NCBI GenBank assembly: GCA_030638825.1
Contig: DAOWDU010000031.1
Span: 4,206-68,205 of the forward strand
Direction of reading: 5' to 3'
Length of the DNA: 64,000 nt
Source of the DNA: a bacterium
GTDB lineage: Bacteria > Patescibacteriota > Minisyncoccia > JAHIHE01 > JAGLIN01
Position 1 is the first letter of the stretch; every line of letters begins with the position of its first letter. Position numbers and translations under genes: made by a program. This document shows, in pieces, positions 3,567 through 61,939 of this stretch. The notes under the pieces were generated by a model. It saw only the letters and a list, made by a program, of their open reading frames with translations. It searched no databases and had not been told where the DNA came from.

Positions 3567-3735
3567 TGTCATTGCGAGGAGCCCGAATGAACGCAGTGAG
3601 TGAAATGGCGACGAAGCAATCCCGTAACTATGCACAGAGAACTACCGACGGTGCCATAGTCTCCGCAGAGCTGTGGCACCGCATCTGCAAATCTTGCATT
3701 CTGGGTTCCACAGCCCTACGGGACTATGGAACCCT
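3567..3735. repeat. A truncated family-A element (left half) fused to a second repeat type (ggttccatagtctccgcagagctgtgg...)
   Basis: It opens with ctgtcattgcgaggagcc...gacgaagcaatcccgtaactatgcac. The second part is shared with 36440-36560. Confidence 0.55.
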
Positions 3736-3740
3736 CGGCT

Positions 3741-4400
3741 TTACTTCACATAACCAACAATCTCCCCAAACACATCCTCTACTCCCTGCTCCCCATCAAT
3801 CTTTATCAACATATTTTTCCCCTCATAATATTCCAGCACTGGACTAAGCAATTTTTTACTCCACTCCAAACGCTTCAAAATCTTCTCTGGCGTGTCGTCT
3901 TCCCTCCGATAAACTTCACTCCCGCAAATTGGACATTTTGTATCTTCTTCACCTAAATCTTTTCCGATAATTAAGGGATGTCCATTTTTTTTGCATAATT
4001 TCCGAACAGAAAGTCTTTTCACCGATTCTTCTTTAGATATATCCACATAAAAAATATAATTAATTTTTCTATTCACTTCTTTCAATTTCTTCTCCCAAAA
4101 TTCCGCTTCTTCCAAAATCCGCGGTGTGCCGTCAAATATGATTCCCTTATTTTCATCAAGCTCACTTAATTTTTGTCCCAATATTTTCTCCTTCATAAAA
4201 TCCCAAGGAACAATATTTCCTTTGACATTAATAATCTCATTTATCTTCCTGCCAATTTCCGTATCTTGCTTAGCGATATTCCTCAAAACATCCCCCGTCT
4301 CAAAAATCTGCAAATCAAATTTTTTTGCCAACATTCTTGCTTGCGTTCCTTTTCCCGAACCTTGCGGTCCCATTATTATGATGTTGATATTTTGTTTCAT
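3741..4400 (-). CDS. adk: Adenylate kinase with a zinc-binding lid
   Basis: A GPQGSGKGTQ P-loop and a CxxC...CxxC lid (CKKNGHPL...CPICGSE) are present. Confidence 0.9.
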   Translation of the reverse strand: MKQNINIIIMGPQGSGKGTQARMLAKKFDLQIFETGDVLRNIAKQDTEIGRKINEIINVKGNIVPWDFMKEKILGQKLSELDENKGIIFDGTPRILEEAEFWEKKLKEVNRKINYIFYVDISKEESVKRLSVRKLCKKNGHPLIIGKDLGEEDTKCPICGSEVYRREDDTPEKILKRLEWSKKLLSPVLEYYEGKNMLIKIDGEQGVEDVFGEIVGYVK

Positions 4401-4408
4401 TTTGGTTT

Positions 4409-4981
4409 TTAATAATTATTACATTCTTTTAAAATAATCCCTTTTACCTCTTCCACCGCTTCTCCTAATTTCCCTTCATAATTAACAACTTCATAATCAT
4501 AAATATCTTTATGCTTCAACCACTCTTTCGTGTAAATCATTCTTTCCTTAACAAATTCCTCACTCGCCCCGCGGTTTAGAATTCTTTGTTTTAATATTTC
4601 AAGCGTTGGCGTCATTATAAAAATAGCGACAACTTCAGGCATTAATTTTTTGACTGTTATCACGCCTTTATATTCAATCTTCCAAATTCCTATTTTACCG
4701 CTCTTAATAACTCTTTTAATTTCCTTATTAGTCACGCCATAAAACTGATTATTATATTCCCGCGCATATTCAAAAAATCTATTCTCCGCAATTCCCTTTT
4801 TAAATTCTTCCTTAGAAATAAAATAATAAGGATCCTCCCCAAAAACATCCGACCGCTTTTCTCTCGTCGTTGTTGTCACCACTCTCTCAATCGGCAAAAA
4901 CTTTTTCAGCCCCTCAATAATACTATCCTCGCCTGCGCCAGATGGTCCAGAGATTATGAATAGGTTGTTTTTAGTTGGCAT
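4409..4981 (-). CDS. gmk: Guanylate kinase
   Basis: The motifs ISGPSGAG, TTTREKR, and FEYAREYNNQFYGV align to Gmk. Confidence 0.8.
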   Translation of the reverse strand: MPTKNNLFIISGPSGAGEDSIIEGLKKFLPIERVVTTTTREKRSDVFGEDPYYFISKEEFKKGIAENRFFEYAREYNNQFYGVTNKEIKRVIKSGKIGIWKIEYKGVITVKKLMPEVVAIFIMTPTLEILKQRILNRGASEEFVKERMIYTKEWLKHKDIYDYEVVNYEGKLGEAVEEVKGIILKECNNY

Positions 4982-5071
4982 TGTTTATTTATGAAAAAGT
5001 AAATTCAATTCGTCATTCCTGCGGAGGCAGGAATCCATTTTATCTCAATGACTGATATTTTTCGCAATTTT

Positions 5072-6126: not shown

Positions 6127-6206
6127 CTGGAGTTCACACTTTAGTGTGTAAATTTTAATTTAAATGAAATAAATTCTTACAGGTTAAAACCTGAACTCCA
6201 GAATTT
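6127..6206. repeat. Palindromic repeat family E (ctggagttcacactttagtgtgtaaa...tacaggttaaaacctgaactccag)
   Basis: Terminal inverted repeats ctggagttca/tgaactccag. A near-identical copy lies at 38035-38115 inside prmC. Confidence 0.7.
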
Positions 6207-6211
6207 AATTT

Positions 6212-7483
6212 TTACAATTCATCATAATCCCTCATCGTCAACTGCGAATCAATTTGCCTGATAGAATCAAGAACAACTCCCACAACAATCAAAACAGCTG
6301 CGCCCCCGATAGCCATTGTGGTAACATTCGTCATCGCCTGACCGATAAATGGAAGAACGGCAATTAAACCAAGAAAAACCGCGCCGAGGAAAGTTATTCT
6401 GTTTAAAACCCTTCCTAAAAATTCTGCAGTATTGCCGCCAGGTCTAATCCCTGGCACAAACCCACCATGTTTTTGTAAATTTTCTGCGACATTTTTTGGA
6501 TCAAAAACGATAGAAGTATAAAAATAAGTGAAGAAGAAAACTGTTAAGAAATATAAAATCCCGTAGAATAATTGATCCTGAAAAAGATTATTAATAAAAA
6601 TTGCCACGCCAGCAATAGTCTCATTTGGATTTTCCACAAAAAACGAAGCGACAATTCCTGGAAAAAGCATAATTGACATTGCGAAAATAAGTGGAATCAT
6701 TCCCGCAGAATTCACTTTGAGAGGCAAGAAAGTAGAAACTCCTCCCGAAGTTTTTCCTCCTCTAACTCGCCTCGCGTAAGAAACTGGAATATTTCTCTGC
6801 GCCTCCGCGATAGCGACTACCGCTAAAACTACAATTAGAGACATAATTAACAAGCCAATAATAGAAGGGACTTTATCGGGAGTCATTGTTGAGATAGTTT
6901 GTTGCGCTCCCATCGGCAACCCAGCTACAATTCCCGCGAAAATAATTAGAGAAATTCCGTTGCCGATTTTCTTTTCGGAGATAAGTTCTCCAAGCCACAT
7001 CAGAAATACAGTTCCAGCTGTAATCAATGAAATAGCGACCGCTATATCAAAATTATCAACATTACCAATAATTCCCTGATTTCGCAAAAGAGTAATCATC
7101 GCGAAACTTTGCAAAATAGCAAGTGGCACTGTCGCCATTCTCGTGAACTGATTAAATTTCTGCCGTCCCTGCTCTCCAGATTCCTGATACATTTCCTTGA
7201 TCTGCGGAAAAATCATCGTCAATAATTGCATTATAATTGAAGCGGTAATATACGGTCCAACTCCAAGCAAAACTAAGGAGAATTTTTCCATTCCCCCGCC
7301 AGTGAACATACTCAACATTCCGAGCAACTGATTGCTATGAAAAAAATCACTAAGTCTCTCAGAATCAACAATCGGGATAGGAATATGCGCCGCAATTCTA
7401 AAAACAATCAGCATTGCGCCGACAAAAAATATTTTATTTCGAAGTTCACGATCTTTAAAAACTCGGATTAGTTTTTTGAACAT
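6212..7483 (-). CDS. secY: Preprotein translocase subunit SecY
   Basis: It is a 423-aa polytopic membrane protein located after rplO, in the conserved spc position. Confidence 0.9.
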   Translation of the reverse strand: MFKKLIRVFKDRELRNKIFFVGAMLIVFRIAAHIPIPIVDSERLSDFFHSNQLLGMLSMFTGGGMEKFSLVLLGVGPYITASIIMQLLTMIFPQIKEMYQESGEQGRQKFNQFTRMATVPLAILQSFAMITLLRNQGIIGNVDNFDIAVAISLITAGTVFLMWLGELISEKKIGNGISLIIFAGIVAGLPMGAQQTISTMTPDKVPSIIGLLIMSLIVVLAVVAIAEAQRNIPVSYARRVRGGKTSGGVSTFLPLKVNSAGMIPLIFAMSIMLFPGIVASFFVENPNETIAGVAIFINNLFQDQLFYGILYFLTVFFFTYFYTSIVFDPKNVAENLQKHGGFVPGIRPGGNTAEFLGRVLNRITFLGAVFLGLIAVLPFIGQAMTNVTTMAIGGAAVLIVVGVVLDSIRQIDSQLTMRDYDEL

Positions 7484-8576: not shown

Positions 8577-8630
8577 AAATTTAAATTGTTATATAATCAT
8601 ATCCTCTTTAAATTGCAATTAGCTAAATTT

Positions 8631-8702
8631 GTCACCCTGAGCTTGTCGAAGGGTGATAAATTTAGCGAGCCTGCCCATCCTTCGACAAGCTCAGGATGAC
8701 AA
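8631..8702. repeat. Palindromic repeat family C copy
   Basis: The sequence gtcaccctgagcttgtcgaagggtg ... ccttcgacaagctcaggatgac forms an inverted repeat. Confidence 0.6.
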
Positions 8703-8979: not shown

Positions 8980-9052
8980 TATTGCCTGCCTCCTTTATTT
9001 ATATTGAAGAAATTTTCCTTCTAAAAACATTTTATTATTAAAGAACAATAAT

Positions 9053-9409
9053 TTAGAATTTCAATCCTCCCTCTCTCGCCCCATCAGCCACCGCTTTAAT
9101 TCTTCCGTGATATTTACATCCGCCTCTGTCAAAAACAACTTCAGTTATTTTCTTCTCTTCAGCTTTCTTCGCAATCAACTTCCCCGCTTCCGTTGCTTTT
9201 TCTGTTTTAGTCTTTCCTGATTTAACTTCCTGATCATTGATACTCGCCAAAGTAACGCCAGTTTGATCATCAATTAACTGGATAAATAAACCCTTGTTGC
9301 TTCTATAAACATTCAACCGTGGAATTTTCGCGCTCCCAAAAATCTTAGAGCGAACCTTATTATGTCTCCTTGCTTTATTCTCTTTTTTTATCTTCTCTAG
9401 ATTTTTCAT
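9053..9409 (-). CDS. rplR: 50S ribosomal protein L18
   Basis: The L18 core and its position after rplF support the call. Confidence 0.9.
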
Positions 9410-9436
9410 ATCTATTCTTAAATTTTAATTTATATA

Positions 9437-9577
9437 CTGTCATTGCGAGGAATGAAGTTGAGCGATAGCGAAACGGAATGACGAAGCAATCCCGTAACTA
9501 TGCACGATGAATTTAATCACGAGATTGCTTCGTCGCCATCTCTTCACTACGCTCAATCGGGCTTCTCGCAATGACAG
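9437..9577. mobile_element. Family-A TIR element (about 130-140 bp), MITE-like
   Basis: Termini ctgtcattgcgagga / tc(t/c)cgcaatgacag enclose an internal palindrome gacgaagcaatcccg...cgggattgcttcgtc. Confidence 0.75.
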
Positions 9578-9585
9578 GTAATATT

Positions 9586-10137
9586 TTATTCAGTTGTTCC
9601 CGCCACCTTCTTCCCCACTTTTCTTCTCACCTGTTCCCCAACATATCTAATCCCCTTTCCTTTATACGGCTCTGGTTTCTTCTTGCTTCTAATATCCGCG
9701 GCGATTTGTCCAACTAATTGCTTATCTATACCTGAAATGGTAATCACATTTTTTTCAACTTTTAATTCTATTCCTTCTGGCGCTTCAAAAACAACGGGAT
9801 GGGAAAAACCAAGATTTAAAGTTATATTCTTTCCAGTTTGAGTCGCTTTATGTCCAACTCCGTGAAGTTCCAATTGCTTTTCATATCCTTTCTCAACTCC
9901 TAAAACCATATTAGCAATCAAAGCTCTTGAAAGTCCCCAAAGAGCAAGACTTTTTTTCGTTTCTTTTTTAACAGATAAAATAATTTGATTGTCTCTAATT
10001 TCAACCTGCACATTAAAATCAACCTCAAAATAAAGTTCTCCCTTTGAACCCTTAACAGAAATTCCATTCTTCTTCTCATCAAAAGAAACCGTAATCCCCG
10101 TTGGTATTTCAATTGGTTTTTTTCCTATTTTACTCAT
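9586..10137 (-). CDS. rplF: 50S ribosomal protein L6
   Basis: L6 two-domain sequence and conserved position. Confidence 0.9.
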   Translation of the reverse strand: MSKIGKKPIEIPTGITVSFDEKKNGISVKGSKGELYFEVDFNVQVEIRDNQIILSVKKETKKSLALWGLSRALIANMVLGVEKGYEKQLELHGVGHKATQTGKNITLNLGFSHPVVFEAPEGIELKVEKNVITISGIDKQLVGQIAADIRSKKKPEPYKGKGIRYVGEQVRRKVGKKVAGTTE

Positions 10138-10232
10138 AGATCATTTAAACATATAAGCATTTAAACATTTAAACAAAGTTTTGAAATCTCAACTTGTTTA
10201 TATGTTTATATGCTTAAATGCTTATATGCTAA

Positions 10233-10622
10233 TTACCATACCTCGCAAATAACTTCTCCGCCAACTCCGATTTTCTTCGCTTCTATATTCGTCATCACTC
10301 CTTTTGGCGTTGAAATAATCGCAATTCCGTAACTATTTAAAACTCTTGGGATTTTATCTTTGCCGACATAACTTCTTTGTCCTGGCTTGCTGACTCTTTG
10401 AATTTCAGAAATAGCGTAATGATTATCAACTTTTCTCAAGATAATTTCCAAAGTTATTTTCACACCTTTCTTATGCTGAAGGACATCACCAATATAACCC
10501 TCTTTTTTAAGGATCTTCGCCAGCGCCAATTTAAATTTTGACGACGGCATTTCCACGCTCAAATGATTAGCTCTCTGAGCATTTCTTATTCTCGTTAACA
10601 TATCTGCGATTGGATCTGTCAT
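10233..10622 (-). CDS. rpsH: 30S ribosomal protein S8
   Basis: MTDPIADMLTRIRNA is the canonical S8 N-terminus. Confidence 0.9.
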   Translation of the reverse strand: MTDPIADMLTRIRNAQRANHLSVEMPSSKFKLALAKILKKEGYIGDVLQHKKGVKITLEIILRKVDNHYAISEIQRVSKPGQRSYVGKDKIPRVLNSYGIAIISTPKGVMTNIEAKKIGVGGEVICEVW

Positions 10623-10736
10623 AAGCTACGAAGTTAAAAGTTTATAAAGTTATGAAGTTCTAAAGTTTATAAAGTTCTAAAGTTGAAAGTAAAGGACCTT
10701 ATGAACTTTCTACTTTATAAACTTTAGAACTTCGTC

Positions 10737-10922
10737 TTACCAGCTACTCTTCTTAATCCCTGGCAACTCGCCATTACTCGCTAGTTCTCGAAAACAAATA
10801 CGACATAAATCAAACTTTCTCATATACCCATGCTTTCTTCCGCACTTCCAACACCTTCTCACAATCCGAGTTGAGAATTTTGGTTTTTTAAGAGATTTTG
10901 CTATGAGGGCTGTTCTTGCCAT
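10737..10922 (-). CDS. rpsZ: 30S ribosomal protein S14 type Z (zinc-binding)
   Basis: It is 61 aa with a C4 motif [23 protein letters not shown]. Confidence 0.9.
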
Positions 10923-10942
10923 ATGGTTGTTTAATATGTTTA

Positions 10943-11497
10943 TTATTCTATTTTATCCACTATCGGAAATCCTAAAAGTTTTAATAATTTATATCCTTCT
11001 TCGTCCGTCTTCGCCGTTGTTGTGATATTAACTTCAAATCCGATAATATTTTTTATTGTTTCTCTGTTCACTTCTGAAAAAATGAGATGCTCTTTGATGC
11101 CAATATTAAAATTTCCATTTCTGTCAAACGCTTTCTTGCTTAATCCTCTGAAATCTCTAACCTGCGGCAAAGCGATATTAATTAATCTGTCTATAAATTC
11201 ATACATTTTCGCTCCTCTCAAAATCGCTGTCAATCCAACTGGCATTCCTTCTCTGATCTTAAATCCAGCAATCGCTTTTTTCGCTTTTGTGACAACTGGT
11301 TTCTGCCCTAAAATATTTGCCATATCTTCCTCTATTTTCTTGAAATCATCTTTGCTATCTCTCAAAATATTTCCCAAGCCAGCGTTGACAACAACTTTAG
11401 TTATCGCAGGAACAGCCATATTATTTTTATAGCCAAATTCCTTCCTCATCTCAGGAACAACTTCTTTTTTATATTTTTCTTTTAAGCGTGTTGTCAT
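10943..11497 (-). CDS. rplE: 50S ribosomal protein L5
   Basis: L5 core and operon position. Confidence 0.9.
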
Positions 11498-11520
11498 TTT
11501 AAGGTTTTAATATTATTTTA

Positions 11521-11644
11521 CTGTCATTGCGAGGAGCTCCGCAGAGCGACGAAGCAATCCCGCAACTATGTCCAATGAATTTAATCACGGGATTGCTTCG
11601 TCGCCATCTCTTCGCTACGCTCAATCGGGCTTCTCGCAATGACA
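11521..11644. mobile_element. Family-A TIR element copy
   Basis: It starts with ctgtcattgcgaggagc, contains gacgaagcaatcccgcaact...cgggattgcttcgtc, and ends with tctcgcaatgacat. Confidence 0.75.
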
Positions 11645-11670
11645 TTTCGCAATCCTAAATTATATGTCAT

Positions 11671-11997
11671 CTATTTCTCCACCTGCACATCAATATTCTC
11701 TTTGCACTTCCGACAAATCCTGTGCTTTTCTTTATTTTCCAATATCAAATATCCAACTCTTGTCTGCTTCGTGCATTTTGGACAAATCAAGGCAACATTA
11801 GAAATATTAATCGGCGCGGGAACGGTTATCTTCTGTCCTTTCTCTCCTTGCTTTCTCGCTTTAATATGCTTTTTTATAAAATTCGCGCCCTCAACAACAA
11901 CCCTGTTTTTCTCAGAAATTACTTTGATAACCTTGCCTTTTTTGCCTTTATCTTTCCCAGCAGTTATTATTACTTTGTCGTTAGTTTTGATTTTCAT
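11671..11997 (-). CDS. rplX: 50S ribosomal protein L24 with an embedded C4 zinc-ribbon
   Basis: The KOW motif KVIITAGKDKGKKGKV is present. The start was trimmed to MKIKTNDKV. The motif CPKC...x19...CRKC replaces the usual C-terminal region. Confidence 0.85.
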   Translation of the reverse strand: MKIKTNDKVIITAGKDKGKKGKVIKVISEKNRVVVEGANFIKKHIKARKQGEKGQKITVPAPINISNVALICPKCTKQTRVGYLILENKEKHRICRKCKENIDVQVEK

Positions 11998-12011
11998 AAA
12001 TGTTTTTATTT

Positions 12012-12081
12012 GGAGCAAGGGCTTTAGCCCGAAAGTGTATTAAATTAATCTATCTGACTATCGGGCTAAAGCCCTCGCTCC
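12012..12081. repeat. Family-B hairpin element (ggagcaagggctttagcccgaaag...cgggctaaagccctcgctcc)
   Basis: It is a near-perfect 25-bp inverted repeat. Other copies are at 29337-29399 and 61198-61267. Confidence 0.75.
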
Positions 12082-12083
12082 GT

Positions 12084-12458
12084 CTATAAAACCTCCGGAG
12101 CCAGCGAAACTATCTTCATAAATCCCTTATCTCTCAACTCTCTTCCAACAGGTCCGAAAATTCGAGTTGCTTTTGGCGTTATTCTGTCTTTGCTTTCAAC
12201 TACAACAGCGGCGTTATCATCAAAACGAATATACGATCCGTCTTTTCTTCTCAACGCTTTTCTTTGTCGGACAATTACTGCCTTAATAACTTCTTTCTTC
12301 TTAACCTGCCCTCTCGGTTCTGATAATTTCACAGAAGCGACAATTACATCTCCAATATAAGCATAGCGCCTTCTCGTTCCGCCAAGAACTTTAATGCACT
12401 TTATCAATTTCGCCCCCGAATTGTCCGCAATCATAAGTTTGCTTCCTTGTTGAATCAT
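12084..12458 (-). CDS. rplN: 50S ribosomal protein L14
   Basis: [17 protein letters not shown] is the canonical L14 N-terminus. Confidence 0.9.
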
Positions 12459-12540
12459 GATTTTTTAAATTTGAATTTAGTGTTTTTTATAAATAACTAT
12501 AAATTAACGACTCTTTTATTTTCTAAAATGAAATTTCTAT

Positions 12541-12813
12541 CTATTTCTCAATACTTTTCGCCACCCACTTCTTATCTTTACTAATCGGCTTAGTTTCCAT
12601 AATCATCACCTTATCCCCAATCTTAAATTCATTCCCCTCATCATGCGCTTTGTATTTCTTGCTTACTTTATACTTCTTCTTATATTTAGCATGCATCTTC
12701 AACCGATCAATTTTAACAACAACCGTCTTATCCATTTTATCACTCACAACAATGCCAACCTTGCCTTTTTTGGCGCTCTTTTTTTCTTTATTTTTTTCGT
12801 TGTCTTTATTCAT
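12541..12813 (-). CDS. rpsQ: 30S ribosomal protein S17
   Basis: The S17 OB-fold core ([16 protein letters not shown]...HDE.NE..IGD.V.I.E.KP.SK.K.W) is present. Confidence 0.85.
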
Positions 12814-12840
12814 AAATAATCTTATAGATATTGAAATAAC

Positions 12841-13041
12841 TTATTTCTTTTCCTTTAAATACCTTTCCCTTAAAATCGTCTTCGCAACCGCAATTATTTT
12901 CTTCGCTTTCTTAATCTCATTATAATCCTTCAACTGCTTATTAGTCAAAGCAAACCTAAACTCTCTCAGCTTTTCTTTATTTTCCTTAATCAAACTTTGC
13001 AATTGATTATCAGATTGTTCTCTATATTCTTTTGCCTGCAT
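12841..13041 (-). CDS. rpmC: 50S ribosomal protein L29
   Basis: It is a 66-aa helical protein beginning LREFRFAL, located between rplP and rpsQ. Confidence 0.85.
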   Translation of the reverse strand: MQAKEYREQSDNQLQSLIKENKEKLREFRFALTNKQLKDYNEIKKAKKIIAVAKTILRERYLKEKK

Positions 13042-13050
13042 ATAATTAAA

Positions 13051-13458
13051 TTATTCTTTAACAATAAACCTCGTCTTAATCGGCAACTTATGACTCGCCA
13101 GACGCATTGCCTCTTTCGCCACATCTTCTTCAATCCCTTCCATTTCAAATATAATCCTGCCTGGTTTTACAACTGCTGAGAAATGATCCAAACTTCCTTT
13201 TCCACTACCCATCGGAACTTCTGCCGCTTTTTTCGTAATTGGTTTATCAGGAAAAATTCTAATCCAGATCTTGCCGCCTCTTTGCACATATCTCGTCATC
13301 GCCCGCCTCGCCGCTTCAATTTGCCTGCTCGTAATCAAAGAAGTCGCCATCGCTTTCAAACCAAAAGACCCAAAAGCAATTTTATTGCCGCGCTGCGCCT
13401 TCCCACGCATTCTTCCCTTCATCATCTTCCTGTGTTTTACTTTTTTGGGCATCAACAT
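13051..13458 (-). CDS. rplP: 50S ribosomal protein L16
   Basis: [11 protein letters not shown]...GRMRG is the canonical L16 N-terminus. Confidence 0.9.
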
Positions 13459-13504
13459 AATCGTGCATTAAAATTAAAGCGAATTATAGATAATAATTAT
13501 TGAA

Positions 13505-13670
13505 ATATTTAAACCAACCTATTTTTTAAAGCTGTAATTTTCAATTTCTAATTTCTAATTTTTATTGAATTTCTAATTCTTTAATTTCTAATCTTAAAAC
13601 TTCAAAATTGAAAATTAATTATTGAAAATTTAATAGAAATTAGAAATTAGAAATTAGAAATTTTTTACAG
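13505..13670. repeat. AT-rich palindromic array (agaaatt / aatttct units) in the rpsC-rplP intergenic region
   Basis: Inverted arrays of aatttctaatttctaat are mirrored by attagaaattagaaatt. A similar block lies at 37501-37655. Confidence 0.6.
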
Positions 13671-14315: not shown

Positions 14316-14327
14316 GTGTTTTTTAAA

Positions 14328-14660
14328 TTATTTCTTATCTAAAATTATCGTCACATTACTCGTCCTTTTATTTATCCTCGCTGATCTTCCCATTGCTCTC
14401 GGTCGCCACCTTTTCATAATTTTCCCGTCATTAACTACTATTTTTGAAATATATAAATTTTTCTCATCTAAATTAAAATTATTCTTAGCATTAGCGACAG
14501 CGGAATTTAACAACTTCAATAATAATTCTGACGATTTTTTATTAATGAATTTCAACTGCGTTTGCGCTTCTTTAATTTCCATCTTCCTAATCAAATCAAC
14601 AACCAACCTCACTTTTCGTGAAGAAACTCTCAAATGATTTAAATGTGCCTTAATTTCCAT
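14328..14660 (-). CDS. rplV: 50S ribosomal protein L22
   Basis: The L22 core and operon position support the call. Confidence 0.9.
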   Translation of the reverse strand: MEIKAHLNHLRVSSRKVRLVVDLIRKMEIKEAQTQLKFINKKSSELLLKLLNSAVANAKNNFNLDEKNLYISKIVVNDGKIMKRWRPRAMGRSARINKRTSNVTIILDKK

Positions 14661-14688: not shown

Positions 14689-14830
14689 CTGTCATTGCGA
14701 GGAGCCCGATTGAGCATAGCGAAGAGATGGCGACGAAGCAATCCCGTGATTAAATTCATCTTGCATAGTCACGGGATTGCTTCGTCGACATTTCTCTCAC
14801 TTCGTTCGTTCAGCCTCCTCGCAATGACAG
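14689..14830. mobile_element. Family-A TIR element copy, between rpsS and rplV
   Basis: It runs from ctgtcattgcgaggagcc to cctcctcgcaatgacag and includes the internal gacgaagcaatcccgtg...acgggattgcttcgtcg palindrome. Confidence 0.75.
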
Positions 14831-20106: not shown

Positions 20107-20247
20107 CTGTCATTGCGAGAAGCCCGAATGAGCGTAGCGAAGAGATGGCGACGAAGCAATCCCGTGACTATGCACAAATGGCTTAGTCACAGGATTGCTT
20201 CGTCGGCATTTCTCTCACTTCGTTCGTTTAGCCTCCTCGCAATGACA
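20107..20247. mobile_element. Family-A TIR element copy, between rpsJ and rplC
   Basis: It starts with ctgtcattgcgagaagcc and ends with cctcctcgcaatgaca. Confidence 0.75.
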
Positions 20248-20254
20248 ATTTAAT

Positions 20255-23498: not shown

Positions 23499-23638
23499 TG
23501 TCATTGCGAGGAATGAAGTTGAGCGATAGCGAAACGGAATGACGAAGCAATCCCGTAACTATGTCTAGTGAATTTAATCACGGGATTGCTTCGTCGCCTT
23601 CTCTTCGCTACGCTCATTCGGGCTCCTCGCAATGACAG
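23499..23638. mobile_element. Family-A TIR element copy, between fusA and dut
   Basis: It runs from ttgtcattgcgaggaatgaagttgagcg to ggctcctcgcaatgacag. Confidence 0.75.
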
Positions 23639-31000: not shown

Positions 31001-31140
31001 CTGTCATTTTTCACTGTCATTGCGAGGAAGCCTGAGCGAGCGTAGCGAGCGAGATGGCGACGAAGCAATCCCAGTATTAAATTCCTCGTGCATAGTTACG
31101 GGATTGCTTCGTCGCTCTGCGGAGCTCCTCGCAATGACAT
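31001..31140. mobile_element. Family-A TIR element copy, between atpH and atpA
   Basis: It runs from ctgtcatttttcactgtcattgcgaggaagcc to gagctcctcgcaatgacat. Confidence 0.75.
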
Positions 31141-53771: not shown

Positions 53772-55574
53772 TTATTGCGCTATTGCCCAAAAAGTCAATT
53801 GCGCCGATTTTGCGCCATTTCCATCTGAGTAGCCAGCGGGAATAGAAAGTTCTACGGCTACATTTTGATTGCCATCTTGAGCAATATCAGTTTCAAAATT
53901 TTTCCAGGACACGCTATTCAAATCTAAATTTTCGGTAAAGAGGGAATCTCCGCTAACTAAAGCCTCTATGTGTATATCAGAAGTTCCATTGTTATTAAGC
54001 GTAATATTTTTGGTAGCAGAAGATCCAGAATTTAAATTACCAAAATCAAGATTGCTTGTATCAACAACAAAAGAAATTGTATCTTCGTTAGTGCTATCTC
54101 CTTCAACATCTCCATTTTCTATAGTTACGGTCAAATCAACGGAAGAACTTGCCCCCTGCCCAACTTTTAATAAAATAGAATTACTTCTAACATATCCTTC
54201 TTTTTGCGCGTGAATTTTATAAAATCCGTCCTGCAAAGAAATGCCCACTTGTCCGTTAGTATTAGTAGTAATCGTATCCACGCCAAAATAAACAGAAGCG
54301 CCAACAAGAGGAGACCAAGAATTATCACTGAAAAATTCCACCGTAGCTGTAACGGATTGATTGGCATCTGCTTGCTCAGCTGATAAAACTAATCTTGTCG
54401 GCTGCCAGTCAAAACCGCCGTAATACCATAAAACAGAATCGCCAGTTTGCATTTCATAATCCGCCGCTCCCACAAAAAGAGATATATTATTAATTAAATA
54501 CAGCCAACCTAATTCTCCTTTTGCTTCGTCGTTATTAATTCTTTTTAGGTAAGGACCCCAGTCAGTATCTTTAACTTCATAAGTAAAATCGCAAATACTT
54601 TTTGCGTTTTTGACAATATCCAAAGCAGTTGGTCCAGTTACTTCACCTAAACAAATTGTTTCCTCTAATCCCTCAATACGAAAAGGAAATTTTTGGGCAA
54701 GGGCATCATTTTCCACAATATTAAGAGGAAGTTTTTTACCCTGTAGAGCGATAACCGCGTAAGCCGTGGTCATTGCCGAAAAAGAATCTTCTCCAGAGGA
54801 ACTATTTTGATATTTAAAAAAGCCTTGCTCACTTTGATTTAATTCAAGATATGAAATGGGAGTGTTGTCGGATTTGATCAAACCGCTTGGATCAATATCC
54901 AAAGCGTTAAGCGCCCAAATTACCCATGCCGTGGATGAAGAATCGGAATTAGAATCGGAATAATAAGGAAAACCGCCATCGTTATTTTGTGATGTTTGCA
55001 AAAAAGATAGGGCGTTTTGAATGCGAGAATCAGAGTTGTCAATTCCAGCAGATACAAGCGCTAAAATAGCGGCCGCAGTCATATTCGTATCAGAATTAGC
55101 TGTTACAGAAAAACCCCATCCGCCATCATCGTTTTGATGAGAAAAAATAAAGTTTTTTGAATCAACAATAATCACATCATCAAGAGATTCACCAGCGGAG
55201 ATAAGAGCCAAAATTCCAAAACAGTCATCATTAAGCATCGTAATATCTCCTATCTGATTTTCAGTATAATAGCTTTTAAGCGCGGCGACATAATCAGTTG
55301 ACGAAAAAACACGCGGATTTTCTCCTATAGCCGTTATCGCTAGAATTGGCGCGGCGTGATCAATGGCGTTTGTTCCATTGATAGAAATAAGATGATCTAT
55401 GGGAATAGAAGAATTTCCAAGCGCAGACAAAGCCATTGTGCTCCACGGATTAGCGCTATTTGCGGTTAAATAGTCCTGCGCGCTATTTGTGTTATAGGTT
55501 GCGTTTATTTCTGAAGAAGGAAACATGGAAAACAACAACACAACAATTAACATTACGGATAATAACTTTTTCAT
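53772..55574 (-). CDS. Secreted protein with prenyltransferase/terpenoid-cyclase-like repeats and a carboxypeptidase-regulatory-like domain
   Basis: It has a signal peptide. The repeats QNDDGGW and NDGGFPY are present. Confidence 0.45.
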   Translation of the reverse strand: MKKLLSVMLIVVLLFSMFPSSEINATYNTNSAQDYLTANSANPWSTMALSALGNSSIPIDHLISINGTNAIDHAAPILAITAIGENPRVFSSTDYVAALKSYYTENQIGDITMLNDDCFGILALISAGESLDDVIIVDSKNFIFSHQNDDGGWGFSVTANSDTNMTAAAILALVSAGIDNSDSRIQNALSFLQTSQNNDGGFPYYSDSNSDSSSTAWVIWALNALDIDPSGLIKSDNTPISYLELNQSEQGFFKYQNSSSGEDSFSAMTTAYAVIALQGKKLPLNIVENDALAQKFPFRIEGLEETICLGEVTGPTALDIVKNAKSICDFTYEVKDTDWGPYLKRINNDEAKGELGWLYLINNISLFVGAADYEMQTGDSVLWYYGGFDWQPTRLVLSAEQADANQSVTATVEFFSDNSWSPLVGASVYFGVDTITTNTNGQVGISLQDGFYKIHAQKEGYVRSNSILLKVGQGASSSVDLTVTIENGDVEGDSTNEDTISFVVDTSNLDFGNLNSGSSATKNITLNNNGTSDIHIEALVSGDSLFTENLDLNSVSWKNFETDIAQDGNQNVAVELSIPAGYSDGNGAKSAQLTFWAIAQ

Positions 55575-55869
55575 AATTTTCTTTCTAGATAAAATAAAAA
55601 CATCTCCGCCTCAGAGAAGATGTTCATTTTATCACAACAAAAACAAAACGAAGCCCCTCTTTAGCTCGAAGATAGGATCTTATCTTTTTATAAGTAGTTG
55701 GTTAGCATTCTGGCTTACTTCATCTTTCTGCAGAAGACAAAGATCACAGTTGCGGCACAGCACCAGATTTTTTCCAAATTACGGAAATCACTGGATTTTC
55801 CTAACCGACCTCTTTATATATTTAAAGAGGAACTATCTTATTAATTAATTTGTTAAAAGTAAAATAATT

Positions 55870-59077: not shown

Positions 59078-60328
59078 TTATCCATTGAGATTAACTGGAT
59101 TCCCGCCTCCGCGGGAATGACAGAAAACAAGCTTCTTTATTTTCTCTCTAAAAACATCCTCTGAAAACTTCTCCGCCTGTTTCTTAATTTTTTCAGCATC
59201 ATAGTTATTATAATTATTTTTCATTCTCCTCACGCCGTCCGCTAAGATTTCGGGGATTGGATCGTCAAAAAATTCTCCTGTTTTTCCTTCAATTACTGTT
59301 TCTAAAACGCCTCCTTTTCTATACGCCAAAACTGGTTTGCCAAAAGACATTGCTTCAATTGGCGTTATTCCAAAATCATCTTCTCCCGGAAAAATAAACG
59401 CGTAACAATTTTCATAATATTGCGCGAGTTTTTCTTCTGGTTGAAATCCAAGAAATTTAATGTTCTTATTCGCTATTTTCTCAAGTCTTTTTTTATCTTC
59501 GCCCTCCCCAATGATCACAAGCGGCAATTCCAGTTTATTAAACGCTTCAATCGCAATATCTATTTTTTTATAAGGACTAAGACGAGAGACTACCAGGAAA
59601 TAACTATTATTATCTGTCATTGCGAGAAAGCCCGATTGAGCGTAGCGAAGAGAAGGCGACGAAGCAATCCCATGATTAAATTCATCGCGCGTAGTTGCGG
59701 GATTGCTTCGTCGCTCTGCGGAGCTCCTCGCAATGACAGTGTTCGTCGGCGGATAAATCACTTCACTCTCTCTTCCATAAAACTTCTTAATCCTCTTCGC
59801 GGTATGCTCTGAATTGGCGATGAAATAATCAACTCGCTCTGAAGCTGATTTGTCCCACATTCTTAAATAATGTAAAAACGGCAAAATAATTATTTTTTTA
59901 ATTCCGTTGATTTTATTTTCCTCAAGATAATTATAATACCAATCCCAAAGAAATCTGGTCGGAGTGTGGCAATAGCAAATGTGAACCGCTTTTGGTTTGG
60001 TAATTACTCCTTTCACAAATGAACTTGAAATGGAAATAACAACATCAAAATCCCTCAAATCAAAAGTCTCCGCCGCAGTCGGCATAAATGGCAATAGATA
60101 CTTTTTTCGCTTTTTTATAAACTTAGGCAACCTATTTAAAAACGAACTTCTTATTTTCGCACCAGGAAAATACTTCTTCATTTTTTTCTCATCATACAAC
60201 AAAGTATAAATCGGCGCGTCTGGATATAATTTATGCAACGACATCAAAACCCTTTCGGCTCCACCGAAGTAAGTTAAAAAGTCGTGAACAATCGCTATTT
60301 TTGGTTTTTGGGATGAGGGGGTTGACAT
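59078..60328 (-). CDS. GT4-family glycosyltransferase with an in-frame family-A repeat insertion
   Basis: The GT4 N- and C-domain sequences (EX7E region, GEFFDDP) are present. The insert lies at 59614-59739 in the interdomain linker. Confidence 0.7.
   Translation of the reverse strand: MSTPSSQKPKIAIVHDFLTYFGGAERVLMSLHKLYPDAPIYTLLYDEKKMKKYFPGAKIRSSFLNRLPKFIKKRKKYLLPFMPTAAETFDLRDFDVVISISSSFVKGVITKPKAVHICYCHTPTRFLWDWYYNYLEENKINGIKKIIILPFLHYLRMWDKSASERVDYFIANSEHTAKRIKKFYGRESEVIYPPTNTVIARSSAERRSNPATTRDEFNHGIASSPSLRYAQSGFLAMTDNNSYFLVVSRLSPYKKIDIAIEAFNKLELPLVIIGEGEDKKRLEKIANKNIKFLGFQPEEKLAQYYENCYAFIFPGEDDFGITPIEAMSFGKPVLAYRKGGVLETVIEGKTGEFFDDPIPEILADGVRRMKNNYNNYDAEKIKKQAEKFSEDVFREKIKKLVFCHSRGGGNPVNLNG
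59614..59739. mobile_element. Family-A TIR element inserted in-frame in the GT4 gene
   Basis: It runs from ctgtcattgcgagaaagcc through gacgaagcaatcccatg...cgggattgcttcgtc to gagctcctcgcaatgacag. It encodes about 42 aa without a stop. Confidence 0.75.
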
Positions 60329-60641
60329 AGTTTAAATTTATACTAAACTGGTAATATTGTAGGCAGAAATATTAATTACAGGAGATGAGAATATTAGTGG
60401 TGGAGATACTAAGGAAGTAAAGATAGAAGTAGCAGGTGTTGTAAGTCCGCATAGATATGCAGATAAGATGAGGGCTTTTCATCAATTAGAGGCACAAATG
60501 CGAAAAGATCTGCAAAAAAAGAAATAATTTAGGCGTCAATTTTAACAGAAGTTGAGATTGCTCTGCCTATTTTTTTTATTTATTTTCTTTTTAGATTGAT
60601 GAAATTGTAGGGGCGGATCACGACCCGCCCCTGCAATTTCA

Positions 60642-61778
60642 TCAATTCAACAACACTCCCATCGTCTCCCGCGCGCACTTCTCCCAACTAAATCTCCCAA
60701 CATTCTCAAATCCCCTTTCAATCATTTTATTTCTCAAATCATCATCATTAAAAACTTTACTCATCGCCTCAGAAATTTCTTGAATATTATTTGGATCAAT
60801 TAATAAAGCAGCACCCCCTGCCACTTCTGGCAAAGATGAAGTATTAGAACAAACCACAGGAACGCCATAACTCATCGCTTCTAAAACTGGCAAACCAAAT
60901 CCTTCGTAAAAAGATGGTAAAATAAATAAATCAGCATTTTGATATAACTCTTCTTTTTCTGATTCGGAAATATAATCTTTTAAAATAATATCTTTTTTAA
61001 ACTGCGATTCCTGAATTGTAGTTTTTATTTCCTCAAAACCAAATCCAGCTTTTCCAACTAAAATCAATTGCGAAGGCGACATTCCGGAATGTCGCCTTCG
61101 CAATTGATTTTTAAACAATTCAAACGCTTTGACTAAATTTACAATATTCTTCCTCTTCTCTAACCTTCCTAAAAATAAAACATTAAATTCTATTTTTGGA
61201 GTAAGGGCTTCAGCCCGAATTTGTACTAAATTATTTTGTTTCACTTTCGGGCTGAAGCCCTTACTCCAATTACTGTTTACCCCATGATAAACAACATTTA
61301 TTTTCCCCTCCTCAACTCCATAAAACTTAATCAAATCTTTTTTAGTATTCTCCGATGGGACAATAATTTTGCTTGCTAATTTTATTGAAAGTTTAGTATT
61401 AATTTCTAAAATCATTCTCTCTTTAAGAGAATAGCATTCGGGAAAATATTTATATTCCAAACCGTGGATTGTTACGACAGTTTTGGACGGATGGACTTGA
61501 GGAACAGCGTAAGCTGGAACAAACAAAACATCTGGTTTATTTTTCATCATTTCAGACGCCAACCCAATCTGCGTCCAGAATTTATTTGGAGAAATAATTT
61601 TCAATTTAAAATTACTTGGTAAATCAAAATCTATGACCAGATTTTTTCTTGCATATAAAAAAATCTGATGGCTTTTTAAATCCATCATCGCTAAATTCTT
61701 AATCAACTGATAAGAATATTCTTCTATCCCAGTTTTTTCTTTTTCAAACGCTCGTGAAGCGTCAATACCGATGTTCAT
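60642..61778 (-). CDS. GT4-family glycosyltransferase with an in-frame family-B hairpin insertion
   Basis: GT4 motifs are present. The insert at 61198-61267 lies in the interdomain linker. Confidence 0.7.
   Translation of the reverse strand: MNIGIDASRAFEKEKTGIEEYSYQLIKNLAMMDLKSHQIFLYARKNLVIDFDLPSNFKLKIISPNKFWTQIGLASEMMKNKPDVLFVPAYAVPQVHPSKTVVTIHGLEYKYFPECYSLKERMILEINTKLSIKLASKIIVPSENTKKDLIKFYGVEEGKINVVYHGVNSNWSKGFSPKVKQNNLVQIRAEALTPKIEFNVLFLGRLEKRKNIVNLVKAFELFKNQLRRRHSGMSPSQLILVGKAGFGFEEIKTTIQESQFKKDIILKDYISESEKEELYQNADLFILPSFYEGFGLPVLEAMSYGVPVVCSNTSSLPEVAGGAALLIDPNNIQEISEAMSKVFNDDDLRNKMIERGFENVGRFSWEKCARETMGVLLN
61198..61267. repeat. Family-B hairpin element inserted in-frame in the GT4 gene
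   Basis: The sequence ggagtaagggcttcagcccgaat...ttcgggctgaagcccttactcc encodes SKGFSPKVKQNNLVQIRAEALTPK. Confidence 0.75.
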
Positions 61779-61796
61779 TTTAGTTGGAATTAAAGA

Positions 61797-61939
61797 TTGT
61801 CATTGCGAGGAGCCTGAGTGAGCGTAGCGAACGAGAAGGCGACGAAGCAATCCCGCAACTATGCACAACGAATTTAATCACGGGATTGCTTCGTCGCCAT
61901 TTCACTCACTGCGTTCGTTCAGGCTTCTCGCAATGACAG
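61797..61939. mobile_element. Family-A TIR element copy, between GT4 and mreB
   Basis: It runs from ttgtcattgcgaggagcc to gcttctcgcaatgacag. Confidence 0.75.

Follow-up and report, generated by a model that had tools for sequence, protein, structure and literature searches.

A dense palindromic repeat family in a Patescibacteria genome, probably a composite-stem branch of the CGTC-tagged REP superfamily

What kind of element recurs nine times in a 64,000-nt stretch of a Patescibacteria genome (the window), mostly in short gene spacers, and how did it get there? The original prediction held this repeat, here called Family A, to be an element with terminal inverted repeats (TIRs). Searching both strands for CTGTCATTGCGAGGAGCC with up to 3 mismatches gave 16 matches compared to a mean of 0.01 in shuffles, and GACGAAGCAATCCCG gave 21 matches against 0.91 expected, 17 of which lie inside Family A elements. 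An exact 9-mer census of the window resolved 17 units, arranged as 8 doublets and 1 singlet, and the only chance matches elsewhere were two, at 29615 and 34434. The nine copies are therefore real and 8 of them are full, but the copy listed at 3567 is the left half only, and the one listed at 31001 starts at 31014, as a decoy, ACTGTCAT, is located 13 nt upstream of its true start. The copies are as follows:

3566..3645 (end approximate), + strand: half copy in the adk/map spacer, one unit (head CTGTC, ATTGCGAG..CGAAGCAAT, tail CCCG) and a portion of the loop
9437..9577, unstranded: full doublet, 141 nt, 8 nt past the L6 stop and 27 nt ahead of the L18 start, genes on the - strand; dG -73.5, z -10.6
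11521..11645, unstranded: full doublet, short class, 125 nt, 25 nt past the L24 stop and 23 nt ahead of the L5 start; one arm is GAGCTCCGCAGAGC
14689..14830, unstranded: full doublet, 142 nt, abutting the S19 stop (0 nt), 28 nt ahead of the L22 start; dG -85 and -87, z -13.6 and -13.8
20107..20248, unstranded: full doublet, 142 nt, 6 nt past the S10 stop; L3 start 123 nt downstream, with uncertain start position
23499..23638, unstranded: full doublet, 140 nt, 7 nt past the EF-G stop and 10 nt ahead of the dut start
31014..31140, unstranded: full doublet, short class, 127 nt, 19 nt past the atpH stop and 22 nt ahead of the atpA start, genes on the + strand; dG -65.3, z -7.6
59614..59739, - strand: full doublet, short class, 126 nt or 42 codons, in frame in the GT4 glycosyltransferase ORF 59078-60328(-)
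61797..61939, unstranded: full doublet, 143 nt, 8 nt past the mreB stop and 18 nt ahead of the start of the glycosyltransferase 60642-61778

The full copies are near-perfect palindromes of 125-143 bp, with termini that vary by 0-3 bases and pairwise identities of 72-94%, and they fall into two length classes, one of ~142 nt and one of ~126 nt in which one arm is shortened. The copy at 11521 is 95% complementary to 59628-59740, and the central loop of the 20107 copy is partly inverted compared to that of the 14689 copy. The half copy has no right arm, and hence neither the right terminus nor the second inner arm, and a palindromic repeat of another, unrelated kind directly adjoins it at 3646-3740. 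The same region is 99.87-100% identical in 5 contigs from 4 other samples or assemblies, confirming that the copies are no assembly artefacts, and two of these five contigs end inside the 14689 element. The view that one copy every 7 kb or so is extremely dense for a bacterium was overstated, since REP-rich bacterial genomes reach similar repeat densities, but in a small Patescibacteria genome such a density remains notable.

The Family A unit is 36-54 nt long and is composed of (C/T)GTC, ATTGC, GAG, a variable hairpin, CGAA, GCAAT and CC(C/A), in this order. Each full copy is an inverted pair of such units, with the heads pointing outward, the tails inward, and a 25 nt loop between them; thus, the whole element is a dimer of a REP-like unit, and the TIR element with a unique interior had to be abandoned. 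The head contains TGTC in all 17 units of the window, mostly as CTGTC, and is CGTC or TGTC in other phyla. The outer stem ATTGC/GCAAT is found in every unit and comprises 5 Watson-Crick pairs, followed by the GAG/CGAA internal loop and then by a separate inner helix. Between GAG and CGAA, the units of the window have an interior of 16 or 32-34 nt, compared to 6-42 nt for units elsewhere, and its innermost loop is frequently a GNA triloop. Units of the window end in a CCC(G) tail, those of other phyla in CCA, CCC or CTC. Each full copy tested folds into one long hairpin, with dG values of -62 to -87 kcal/mol and z-scores of -6.9 to -13.8, and Family A can still be described as a non-coding, hairpin-forming repeat family that is dispersed in the manner of mobile elements.

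The unit is not confined to this organism. It was found at at least 120 genome loci, in ~14 phyla among the matches listed (~0.1 chance matches estimated), and in at least 120 viral contigs. The hosts among the matches listed are Alpha-, Gamma- and Deltaproteobacteria, Chloroflexota, Bacteroidota, Ignavibacteriota, Verrucomicrobiota, Acidobacteriota, Nitrospirota, Nitrospinota, Zixibacteria, Bdellovibrionota, Clostridia and Patescibacteria, and Family A units are also present in a Rickettsia endosymbiont, in Tisiphia and in an uncultured Rickettsiales genome. Since the search pattern used across phyla prescribed the outer stem and the flanking motifs, their invariance between phyla is partly by construction. 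In the inner hairpin, the sequence changes and the pairing is kept: covariation scores were 0.276 and 0.256, whereas shuffling gave 0.083 and 0.073 (none of 500 shuffles reached the observed value) and sliding the partners at most 0.076. In Tisiphia, the arms of one doublet carry different self-complementary inner hairpins. Among the matches listed, the genome loci contain 77 units in dimers and 114 singlets, direct arrays occur as well, and in the window 8 of the 9 copies are dimers. Neighbouring singlets in viral contigs lie on a common strand in 29 of 33 pairs among the matches listed (p = 1e-5); in genome loci the corresponding ratio, 8 versus 4 among the matches listed, was not significant. 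The viral units are sense to genes in some contigs and antisense in others, and the GAG/CGAA loop is invariant in both. This strand coherence irrespective of gene direction favours a strand-specific process at the DNA level, and the conservation of the internal loop in either sense speaks for DNA, not RNA, as the form that is recognised, although local duplication or contig-specific functional contexts could be an alternative source of the coherence.

The composition of the element bears on the possibility that Family A is a conventional MITE, i.e., a deletion derivative of a DDE-transposase IS that is moved in trans via its terminal inverted repeats, here the CTGTCATTGCGAG termini. Its size of 125-143 bp, its terminal inverted repeats and its dispersed copies would fit, and in-frame insertion and hairpins are known for MITEs. 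However, instead of a unique interior there is a palindrome of two autonomous units, which elsewhere occur single or in direct arrays, and the arms of a dimer may carry unrelated inner hairpins, unlike TIRs. Moreover, a check for target-site duplications revealed no direct repeats in the flanks of any of the 8 full copies. A cognate transposase had also been proposed as a check, but the 64-kb window contains no RAYT/IS200-like gene or other transposase, tblastn found no RAYT in 2.58 Mb of other loci with the unit, and the 114 nearest-neighbour ORFs in other genomes include no transposase family, nor was any family enriched beside the units. Neither the window nor these 114 ORFs contain a parent IS with Family A terminal inverted repeats, and no ORF lies between the paired termini. 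A MITE origin is therefore highly improbable.

Seven of the 8 full copies are located in co-directional operons, 0-25 nt past a stop codon, and the next start follows 10-28 nt (in one case 123 nt) after the copy. Together with the half copy, they occupy the L6/L18, L24/L5, S19/L22, S10/L3, EF-G/dut, adk/map, atpH/atpA and mreB/GT spacers, as had been described, except that one copy inside a glycosyltransferase ORF had been missed. This placement and the extreme stability of the RNA hairpins would suit a selected cis-acting RNA element, such as an mRNA stabiliser, an RNase III-type processing site or a tuner of cistron expression in operons, whose repetition would reflect recruitment. Most of the related CGTC-tagged REPs discussed below are likewise flanked by ORFs that run in one direction or converge, and their transcription is plausible (PMC3733652). 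The mreB/GT copy at 61797 has an orthologous copy in the relative L127, which carries a further copy in its L17/L13 spacer, and such orthologous retention with a consistent post-stop placement could alternatively reflect selection for an RNA function. However, the mreB/GT copy is absent in the relatives L126 and L128, the S19/L22 junction of L131 has no element either, and no substitute is visible at these equivalent junctions. In 14 kb of L127 there are 2 full copies plus 1 remnant, in 12 kb of L126 none. Judged by the loop and the arm asymmetry, the copies also run either way with respect to transcription (6 versus 3), one copy is located in coding sequence and decays by deletion in relatives, and the viral units, sense or antisense, keep the same internal loop. 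An Rfam scan of the window matched only a cobalamin riboswitch, with nothing but sub-threshold generic miRNA-hairpin matches over the Family A element, and 15 loci from other phyla gave no Rfam match. The copies were rejected as intrinsic terminators, since the G+C-rich hairpins have no T-run in the flanks of any copy, and there is no Family A copy among the terminator-like sites in 9000-24000. Finally, purifying selection on tolerated insertion sites would equally be expected to result in post-stop placement. We therefore consider a primary role as an RNA element unlikely. Of note, no transposition event, empty site with a clean junction, or polymorphism was seen, the contigs of this population being 99.87-100% identical and the spacers of the relatives too diverged to define junctions.

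The copy at 59614-59739 encodes residues ~197-238 of the GT4 glycosyltransferase (TVIARSSAERRSNPATTRDEFNHGIASSPSLRYAQSGFLAMTD). In the AlphaFold2 model, residues 198-239 have a pLDDT below 50 and are positioned between the two Rossmann domains, which puts the copy, read in frame, at a surface position in the interdomain linker of the enzyme. Alignment of homologues and the DNA of relatives revealed deletion derivatives at this site, located at ATTGC and GCAAT microhomologies, all of which keep the frame. Family A thus decays by deletion between these internal microhomologies, and the glycosyltransferase gene that keeps the in-frame copy is under selection. The series of a full copy, two microhomology deletions and an absent copy forms a natural record of the decay of an insertion with the frame preserved. 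The open frames of the other copies were thought to create spurious ORFs, and those at 14695-14886 and 23501-23734 indeed exist, but the glycosyltransferase copy is truly in frame in a conserved gene. Otherwise, open frames of this kind result incidentally from G+C-rich palindromes lying in an A+T-rich genome. None of the Family A peptides matched a Pfam family.

How does Family A relate to known repeats? The closest class consists of the CGTC-tagged REPs, described as families CGTC-1 to CGTC-4 (Di Nocera, De Gregorio & Rocco 2013, PMC3733652). These are defined by a CGTC head (TGTC and CCTC are allowed), an 8-9 bp stem starting from A-T/T-A, a 4-5 nt loop and a CCA tail, have been reported in 5 phyla, occur mostly as inverted dimers, include intragenic copies and have no associated transposase (PMC3733652). 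Their copy number varies 50-fold between species, which the authors took to argue against a general housekeeping role, and REP families with thousands of units are on record (PMC3733652). RPE-4 of Rickettsia corresponds to CGTC-4, and RPE-6 and the Neisseria dRS3 repeat to CGTC-1 (PMC3733652). Family A shares the head, a stem beginning with A-T, the CC(A) tail, the inverted dimers with outward heads (peptide pairs VIPAKAGIQ...DSRLRGND in the CGTC REPs and VIARS..RRSNP...GIASS..LLAMT in Family A), the post-stop placement between co-directional genes, the in-frame intragenic copies and the lack of a transposase. In contrast to the continuous stem and short loop of this class, Family A has a 5 bp outer stem, an asymmetric internal loop and a variable inner hairpin; with this composite stem and long interior it fits none of the four described families. 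None of the REP-encoded peptides listed for these four families matches Family A. Compared to the 5 phyla of the class, the Family A unit occurs in ~14 among the matches listed, with Patescibacteria, and in viral contigs. The window also contains two canonical units:

5012..5038, + strand: canonical CGTC-1-type REP singlet, CGTCATTCCTGCGGAGGCAGGAATCCA, with an 8 bp stem, 4 nt loop and CCA tail
59099..59125, - strand: canonical CGTC-1-type REP singlet, TGTCATTCCCGCGGAGGCGGGAATCCA, encoding the aberrant C-terminal tail (..CHSRGGGNPV..) of the GT4 glycosyltransferase

Both have the continuous 8-9 bp stem, and they belong to the superfamily of Family A but to a different family. Residues 408-416 of the glycosyltransferase, in its C-terminal tail, have a pLDDT below 50 in the AlphaFold2 model.

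Like the Rickettsia palindromic elements (RPEs), Family A comprises palindromes 100-150 bp in length that populate a reduced genome and are found in frame in conserved genes at solvent-exposed sites, with orthologues that carry the insertion at a common site in different states. Unlike in RPEs, the host is a Parcubacterium and not a member of the Rickettsiales, and the glycosyltransferase and six Family A-encoded peptides matched no NCBIfam/TIGRFAM RPE model even at E-values up to 10. RPE-7 measures 99-123 bp and has ~200 copies in R. conorii. RPE-4, -6 and -7 have a common motif, ATGAC (PMC3767692), which is the reverse complement of the GTCAT head of Family A; a possible identity with RPE-7 is a lead drawn from this motif. 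Like REPINs or BIMEs with their RAYT (TnpA-REP), Family A consists of two inverted units and a short spacer that form one long hairpin, has singlets as dimer remnants and leaves no target-site duplication, and for the REPIN/BIME system a tetranucleotide head plus hairpin on single-stranded DNA has been proposed as recognition module. The analogy with palindromic elements of the IS200/IS605 type, already put forward in the original prediction, is the closest mechanistic precedent. Unlike in REPIN-RAYT systems, the head is (C/T)GTC instead of GTAG, and neither the window nor the 2.58 Mb yielded a RAYT-like gene. Moreover, a REPIN sequence is as a rule confined to one lineage, in which it co-evolves with its RAYT, whereas the flanks of the Family A unit are near-identical across phyla. 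As with the Neisseria dRS3 and Correia repeats and with MITEs, the hairpins are dense, intergenic and co-transcribed, and repeats of this type are able to alter the expression of neighbouring genes. Correia elements and MITEs have TIRs, a TA or longer target duplication and IS relatives, none of which was seen for Family A in the window.

Taken together, Family A probably consists of REPIN/BIME-like inverted pairs that form a distinct, composite-stem branch of the CGTC/TGTC-tagged REP superfamily and are mobilised as DNA. This branch would extend over many phyla and phage contigs, with Rickettsia RPE-4 and -6 and Neisseria dRS3 among its relatives. By analogy with RAYT/TnpA-REP acting on GTAG REPs, the units would be copied elsewhere, now or formerly, by an enzyme that acts in trans and recognises their folded single-stranded DNA form (head and hairpin), so that no target duplication would be left. 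Such an enzyme would be no recognisable RAYT and would not be encoded next to the repeats; this mobilisation step is pure analogy, because no candidate enzyme was identified. Copies would persist where they are least harmful, in short post-stop spacers and surface linkers of proteins, and would be co-transcribed as very stable RNA hairpins that are not terminators but may have an incidental effect on mRNA processing or stability.

A bolder and rather doubtful proposal sees the unit as a structured DNA motif common to bacteria at large, with a constant head and GAG/CGAA loop and a freely covarying hairpin. Its strand-specific copying would be due to an enzyme that is neither a RAYT nor encoded beside it, possibly an unrecognised HUH-like or other single-stranded DNA-processing enzyme, and possibly one with a conserved function in host or phage. 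Such copying would account for the near-identical flanks in ~14 phyla and phage contigs (among the matches listed), the absence of a transposase and the strand coherence of singlets. The same conservation of flanks and internal loop across phyla, with the hairpin alone free to vary, the strand-coherent viral units and the lack of a dedicated transposase (in PMC3733652, the 2.58 Mb and the 114 ORFs) might point to a conserved DNA site for a host factor, e.g., a nucleoid, topology, replication or repair protein, that is spread by recombination or gene conversion rather than transposition. E. coli BIMEs, for example, bind gyrase and IHF. However, copy number differs greatly between close relatives, as it does within the published class with its 50-fold variation (PMC3733652), copies decay, and no candidate protein is known, which makes a host-factor site quite improbable.

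Mobilised REPIN-like pairs thus remain the preferred explanation. CGTC-type REPs, including the protein-invading Rickettsia palindromic elements, are a long-known class for which, to our knowledge, no way of spreading is known; new is Family A as a branch of this class. Patescibacteria genomes are usually regarded as streamlined, yet a CGTC-related but architecturally distinct family thrives here, both between the genes of the most highly expressed operons and, in frame, within a conserved enzyme. For MAG annotation this matters as well, as these repeats break assemblies and create spurious ORFs and odd protein tails. The unit, with its near-identical flanks and covarying hairpin, is common to ~14 phyla and many viral contigs among the matches listed, and the strand coherence in the latter, not tied to gene direction, suggests a DNA-strand-specific process with phages as possible vehicles. 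That the CGTC class comes with no transposase of its own has been noted since 2013 (PMC3733652), and strand-specific copying by a non-RAYT enzyme, if true, would be a new mobilisation mechanism for this whole class of repeats.

The terminal 18-mer of Family A (CTGTCATTGCGAGGAGCC, up to three mismatches, both strands) matched the window 16 times, against a mean of 0.01 in dinucleotide-preserving shuffles, and the inner 15-mer GACGAAGCAATCCCG matched 21 times against 0.91 expected, with 17 of these 21 matches lying inside Family A elements. A census of exact 9-mers in the window gave 17 units, and elsewhere two chance matches only. The repeated element family of the original prediction is thus confirmed, and eight of its nine copies are full. 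The entry at 3567 is a half copy without a right arm, and the coordinate 31001 belongs to a decoy, ACTGTCAT, 13 nt ahead of position 31014, where the copy truly starts; the other coordinates stand.

Family A in the window
9437-9577, full copy
11521-11645, full copy
14689-14830, full copy
20107-20248, full copy
23499-23638, full copy
31014-31140, full copy
59614-59739, full copy
61797-61939, full copy
3566-~3645, half copy, right arm lost; adjoins a different palindromic repeat

The copies are 72-94% identical, share the core ATTGCGAG...CGAAGCAAT, and come in two length classes, ~142 nt and ~126 nt, the latter with one arm shortened to GAGCTCCGCAGAGC. Every tested full copy folded into a single long imperfect hairpin (ΔG -62 to -87 kcal/mol, z -6.9 to -13.8). 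Five contigs, drawn from four other samples or assemblies (GCA_023138945.1 among them), matched the region at 99.87-100% identity. Two of these five contigs terminate inside the 14689 copy, as repeats typically break assemblies. The repeat is therefore real, and the copies are not assembly artefacts, as had been anticipated.

The window has ~35% G+C, and the names of homologues of its glycosyltransferase assign the organism to Patescibacteria/Parcubacteria (Paceibacterota). The genes flanking Family A were named by NCBIfam and Pfam matches. The spacers that carry it are adk / map, L6 / L18, L24 / L5, S19 / L22, S10 / L3, EF-G / dut, atpH / atpA, and mreB / GT4 glycosyltransferase. Seven of the eight full copies begin 0-25 nt past the stop codon of the upstream gene and leave 10-28 nt to the next start codon (123 nt in the case of the uncertain L3 start), all within co-directional operons. 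No T-run or terminator-like score was found after any copy. The S10 ribosomal-protein operon is broken up by ORFs without a Pfam match on record, which are called as genes also in two independent assemblies (L121, L122), dut directly follows EF-G, and the alanine-tRNA ligase is matched by family models in three separate stretches, suggesting insertions relative to the short-form model (~595 aa). A gene pair encoding HEPN and nucleotidyltransferase (Polbeta/NTP_transf_2) proteins is typical of a toxin-antitoxin-like module.

Other genes and elements in the window
15134-15427(-), ORF between L2 and S19
17655-18098(-), 18199-18531(-) and 18765-19268(-), three ORFs between L3 and L4
26146-28440(-), alanine-tRNA ligase, 764 aa
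39992-40715(-), HEPN and nucleotidyltransferase gene pair
55683-55852(-), cobalamin riboswitch RF00174 (33.2 bits, gathering score 31.5), upstream of ORF 53772-55574(-)

The window also contains several other repeats. Copies of the third family listed below jointly fold as a ~375 nt super-hairpin (ΔG -146), located upstream of ORF 30104-30598 in the region of the atp operon. The A+T-rich tandem repeats are found in spacers immediately upstream of genes, including the ribosomal-protein cluster, and might be promoter, UP-element or leader sequences. The GTCAYCCTGAG..CGAAGGRT unit has the same GTCA-stem-GAG...CGA(A)-stem grammar as Family A, of whose superfamily it may be a member.

Other repeats in the window
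61198-61272 (in ORF 60642-61778, - strand), 12007-12081 and 29368-29401, second palindromic family, TTGGAG.AAGGGCTT.AGCCCGAA...TTCGGGCT.AAGCCCT..CTCC, ΔG -42 to -50
29701-30077 and 16787-16841, third family, TTTCTACCC.G.TTTAGC.GAGGGT...GTGA.GTTTTAACCTCACG; direct copies at 29703 and 29911, inverted copy at 30016-30077
3646-3740 and 36441-36545, small family with a GGTGCCATAGTC..TGTGGCACC palindrome, adjoining the Family A half copy
6144-6212 and 38054-38122, 69 nt direct repeat
2253-2304, 8610-8661 and 36645-36696, GTCAYCCTGAG..CGAAGGRT unit
10183-10236, 10632-10685, 13597-13667, 25735-25780, 28453-28490, 34560-34613, 35017-35062 and 37603-37659, A+T-rich tandem repeats with a 7-8 nt period (AGTT.TAAAGTT.., TTTATATG.., AAATTAGAAATTAG..)

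As read from loci in other genomes, the repeated entity is a unit of the form 5'-(C/T)GTC / ATTGC / GAG / hairpin / CGAA / GCAAT / CC(A/C)-3', which for Family A, written as single-stranded DNA, is d(GTCATTGCGAG-GAGCGAAGCGA-CGAAGCAATCC). Some units are singlets and a few form direct arrays (Chloroflexus, Rikenellaceae), and most form inverted pairs, as in the window, with the heads outward and the tails toward a short loop. Here the inner part is either long (32-34 nt), with a GAGCGTAGCGA mini-hairpin nested within a GCC/GGC stem, or short (16 nt). Family A, originally called a TIR element, is therefore best seen as an inverted dimer whose REP-type unit has a TGTC/CGTC head, and the reading of its copies as extremely dense likewise needs correcting.

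The hairpin between GAG and CGAA measures 6-42 nt and varies in sequence while its pairing is kept (GGCC/GGCC, GACC/GGTC, TCCCGC/GCGGGA, GCTAC/GTAGC), and other lineages have Watson-Crick pairs in place of the common GA...GA flank, which could form a tandem G·A pair. Covariation was scored by counting pairs on two gap-free alignments of 20 and 11 distinct units, giving 0.276 and 0.256. Column shuffles gave 0.083 and 0.073, and none of 500 reached the observed value; sliding the 3' partners by 1-3 columns reduced the score to 0.076 or less. Invariance of the outer stem and flanks carries no weight here, because the search pattern fixed them (ATTGC), and in loci collected in this way the outer stem could not vary, which also applies to its covariation across families. 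A doublet in Tisiphia bears a different self-complementary hairpin on each arm, so it is the local fold of each unit that is conserved, beyond arm-to-arm complementarity. On inspection, the GAG/CGAA loop was judged to be neither hammerhead-like nor a kink-turn, as the core positions misfit and the unit is antisense to genes as often as sense, and CRISPR-like arrays were excluded by the irregular spacing in direct arrays (loci L034, L047 and L068).

A coding copy was missed in the original description, which is accurate apart from this, the half copy and the one coordinate. The copy at 59614-59739 spans 126 nt, exactly 42 codons, and lies inside the GT4 glycosyltransferase ORF 59078-60328(-), where it is translated as TVIARSSAERRSNPATTRDEFNHGIASSPSLRYAQSGFLAMTD. 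In relatives that are 83-88% identical, the element is found at this same site, behind a conserved YPP motif, in several states.

State of the linker in GT4 homologues
P0002 and P0003, full element, same frame
P0005, different frame through the middle
P0006 (locus L128), deletion joining GACGAA / GCAATGACAG, single unit left
P0007 (locus L127), deletion joining TGTCATTGC / TTCGTC
P0008, P0009 (locus L126), P0012 and P0014, KSPPPPLRKGEQ linker instead

Both deletions occurred at ATTGC/GCAAT microhomologies, a product of the unit design. The reading frame is kept in every state, which argues that the gene is under selection and that the insertion is old. The KSPPPPLRKGEQ linker of the 'empty' relatives is itself encoded by a different small palindrome, so these provide no empty site with a clean junction. 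In an AlphaFold2 model of the protein (mean pLDDT 72.8), pLDDT falls below 50 at residues 198-239 and 408-416, and since the former stretch is flanked by confident Rossmann domains, the Family A insert is predicted to occupy the interdomain linker. The neighbouring GT4 has an in-frame insert in its interdomain linker as well, the second-family copy at 61198-61272, read as WSKGFSPKV..IRAEALTPK; it is absent in L126, L127 and L128, and L127 has another palindrome-encoded insert there.

Rfam, at gathering and permissive thresholds, returned only generic hairpin matches and no matching family for Family A, and a full-text literature search for its sequence motifs returned unrelated primers only. 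The closest published description is that of a superfamily of CGTC-tagged REPs (Di Nocera, De Gregorio and Rocco, BMC Genomics 2013, PMC3733652). These REPs have a short tail fitting CCA, are mainly inverted dimers, occur in intragenic in-frame copies and, in contrast to GTAG REPs, are without an associated transposase; CGTC-1 corresponds to Neisseria dRS3 and Rickettsia RPE-6, and CGTC-4 to RPE-4 (PMC3733652). Family A resembles them in head, AT-start stem, tail, dimer layout, placement and lack of a transposase, but its stem and loop lengths fall outside the superfamily criteria. Its translations (VIAR..KQS / ..LLAMT) did not match the REP-encoded peptides of the four CGTC families. A scan for GTCA-headed hairpins across the window counted 19, against 5-17 in shuffles, which we judged not above expectation, and brought out two canonical units.

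Canonical CGTC-1 units in the window
5012-5038, perfect
59099-59125, perfect

The genome thus carries both kinds of repeat, and the odd C-terminal tail of the GT4 protein is a translated CGTC-1 unit. We class Family A as a new branch of the CGTC/TGTC superfamily, with a composite stem. It also resembles the Rickettsia palindromic elements (RPEs) in lying between genes, past stop codons, and occasionally within protein linkers, in frame, and the in-frame GT4 copy is the Rickettsia RPE phenomenon in another phylum. Family A may be the counterpart of RPE-7, since its GTCAT head is complementary to ATGAC, a motif common to RPE-4, -6 and -7 (PMC3767692), and RPE-7 is 99-123 bp long with ~200 copies in R. 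conorii (PMC2267715). Family A peptides matched none of the NCBIfam RPE models or Pfam.

Scanning one genome per GTDB species with the terminal 11-mer and inner 13-mer (GTCATTGCGAG N10-40 GACGAAGCAATCC) gave at least 120 loci, against ~0.1 chance matches by our own estimate. Among the matches listed, these cover about 14 phyla: Alphaproteobacteria (Bradyrhizobium and others, including a Rickettsia endosymbiont, Tisiphia and Rickettsiales), Gamma- and Deltaproteobacteria, Chloroflexota, Bacteroidota, Ignavibacteriota, Verrucomicrobiota, Acidobacteriota, Nitrospirota, Nitrospinota, Zixibacteria, Bdellovibrionota, Clostridia, and three Patescibacteria. At least 120 IMG/VR viral contigs, some of which may be host DNA, carried the unit as well, and those listed contained 169 singlets versus 12 units in doublets. 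A BLAST search of plasmid and phage collections with one Family A copy found nothing at E up to 1e-3; the conserved words are probably too short for it. In viral contig L253 (singlets at 2397, 4758, 10173, 10251 and others), every single unit is nested in a larger conserved palindrome (CCGCCCTCCGT / unit / ..TCAATGTAAGGGCGGAG), which recalls that some CGTC dimers are reported inside longer palindromic 'targets'. In viral contig L191, at 5482 and 12740, the ATG in the reverse-complemented head (CGCAATGACAG) is the first ATG of downstream ORFs, with a conserved GGGCTAAAGAA after the head, and units may contribute start regions to some phage genes.

With regard to the mobility of the element, copy number differs among close relatives: the 14 kb of locus L127 hold two full copies and a remnant, located past stop codons in the L17 / L13 and mreB / GT spacers, whereas the 12 kb of L126 are free of copies, as is the S19 / L22 spacer of L131. 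These provided no empty sites or target-site duplications, as contigs from the same population are identical, and the spacers of L126, L128 and L131 without copies are too diverged for junctions. A conventional MITE is unlikely; none of the copies in the window is flanked by direct repeats. The original prediction had proposed a search for a cognate transposase, for example of the IS200/IS605 type. No transposase of any kind was found among the window ORFs with NCBIfam and Pfam, and seven RAYT/TIRYT proteins from PMC3733652 had no tblastn match to the window or to 2.58 Mb of unit-carrying loci. In other genomes, the 114 ORFs closest to a unit matched 135 Pfam families, none of them enriched, and no transposase was among the 25 listed.

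In the viral contigs listed, 29 of 33 pairs of adjacent singlets agreed in strand (binomial p = 1e-5); at genome loci the ratio was 8 versus 4, which is not significant. The unit is antisense to genes in viral contigs L191, L253 and L297 and sense in L203, and co-directional contexts overall were 22 sense and 27 antisense, counts that depend on crude gene calls. A selected cis-RNA role is possible as a secondary effect, but the unit keeps its invariant loop whether sense or antisense to genes. Since the unit is asymmetric, keeps this loop whatever the direction of transcription, and agrees in strand within a replicon, we infer that recognition of one DNA strand explains the behaviour of the unit more easily than an RNA function. 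Strand-specific DNA recognition characterises the HUH/Y1 systems, IS200/IS605 and RAYT among them. It is possible that the unit is a host-factor binding site, and we favour a trans-acting, strand-specific single-stranded DNA mechanism by which Family A would spread without target duplication. The class to which Family A belongs is already known, and the breadth of the unit across about 14 phyla and phage contigs, its covarying composite structure, its abundance in a Patescibacteria genome and the clue of strand coherence now make the long-standing question of how CGTC repeats spread more testable.
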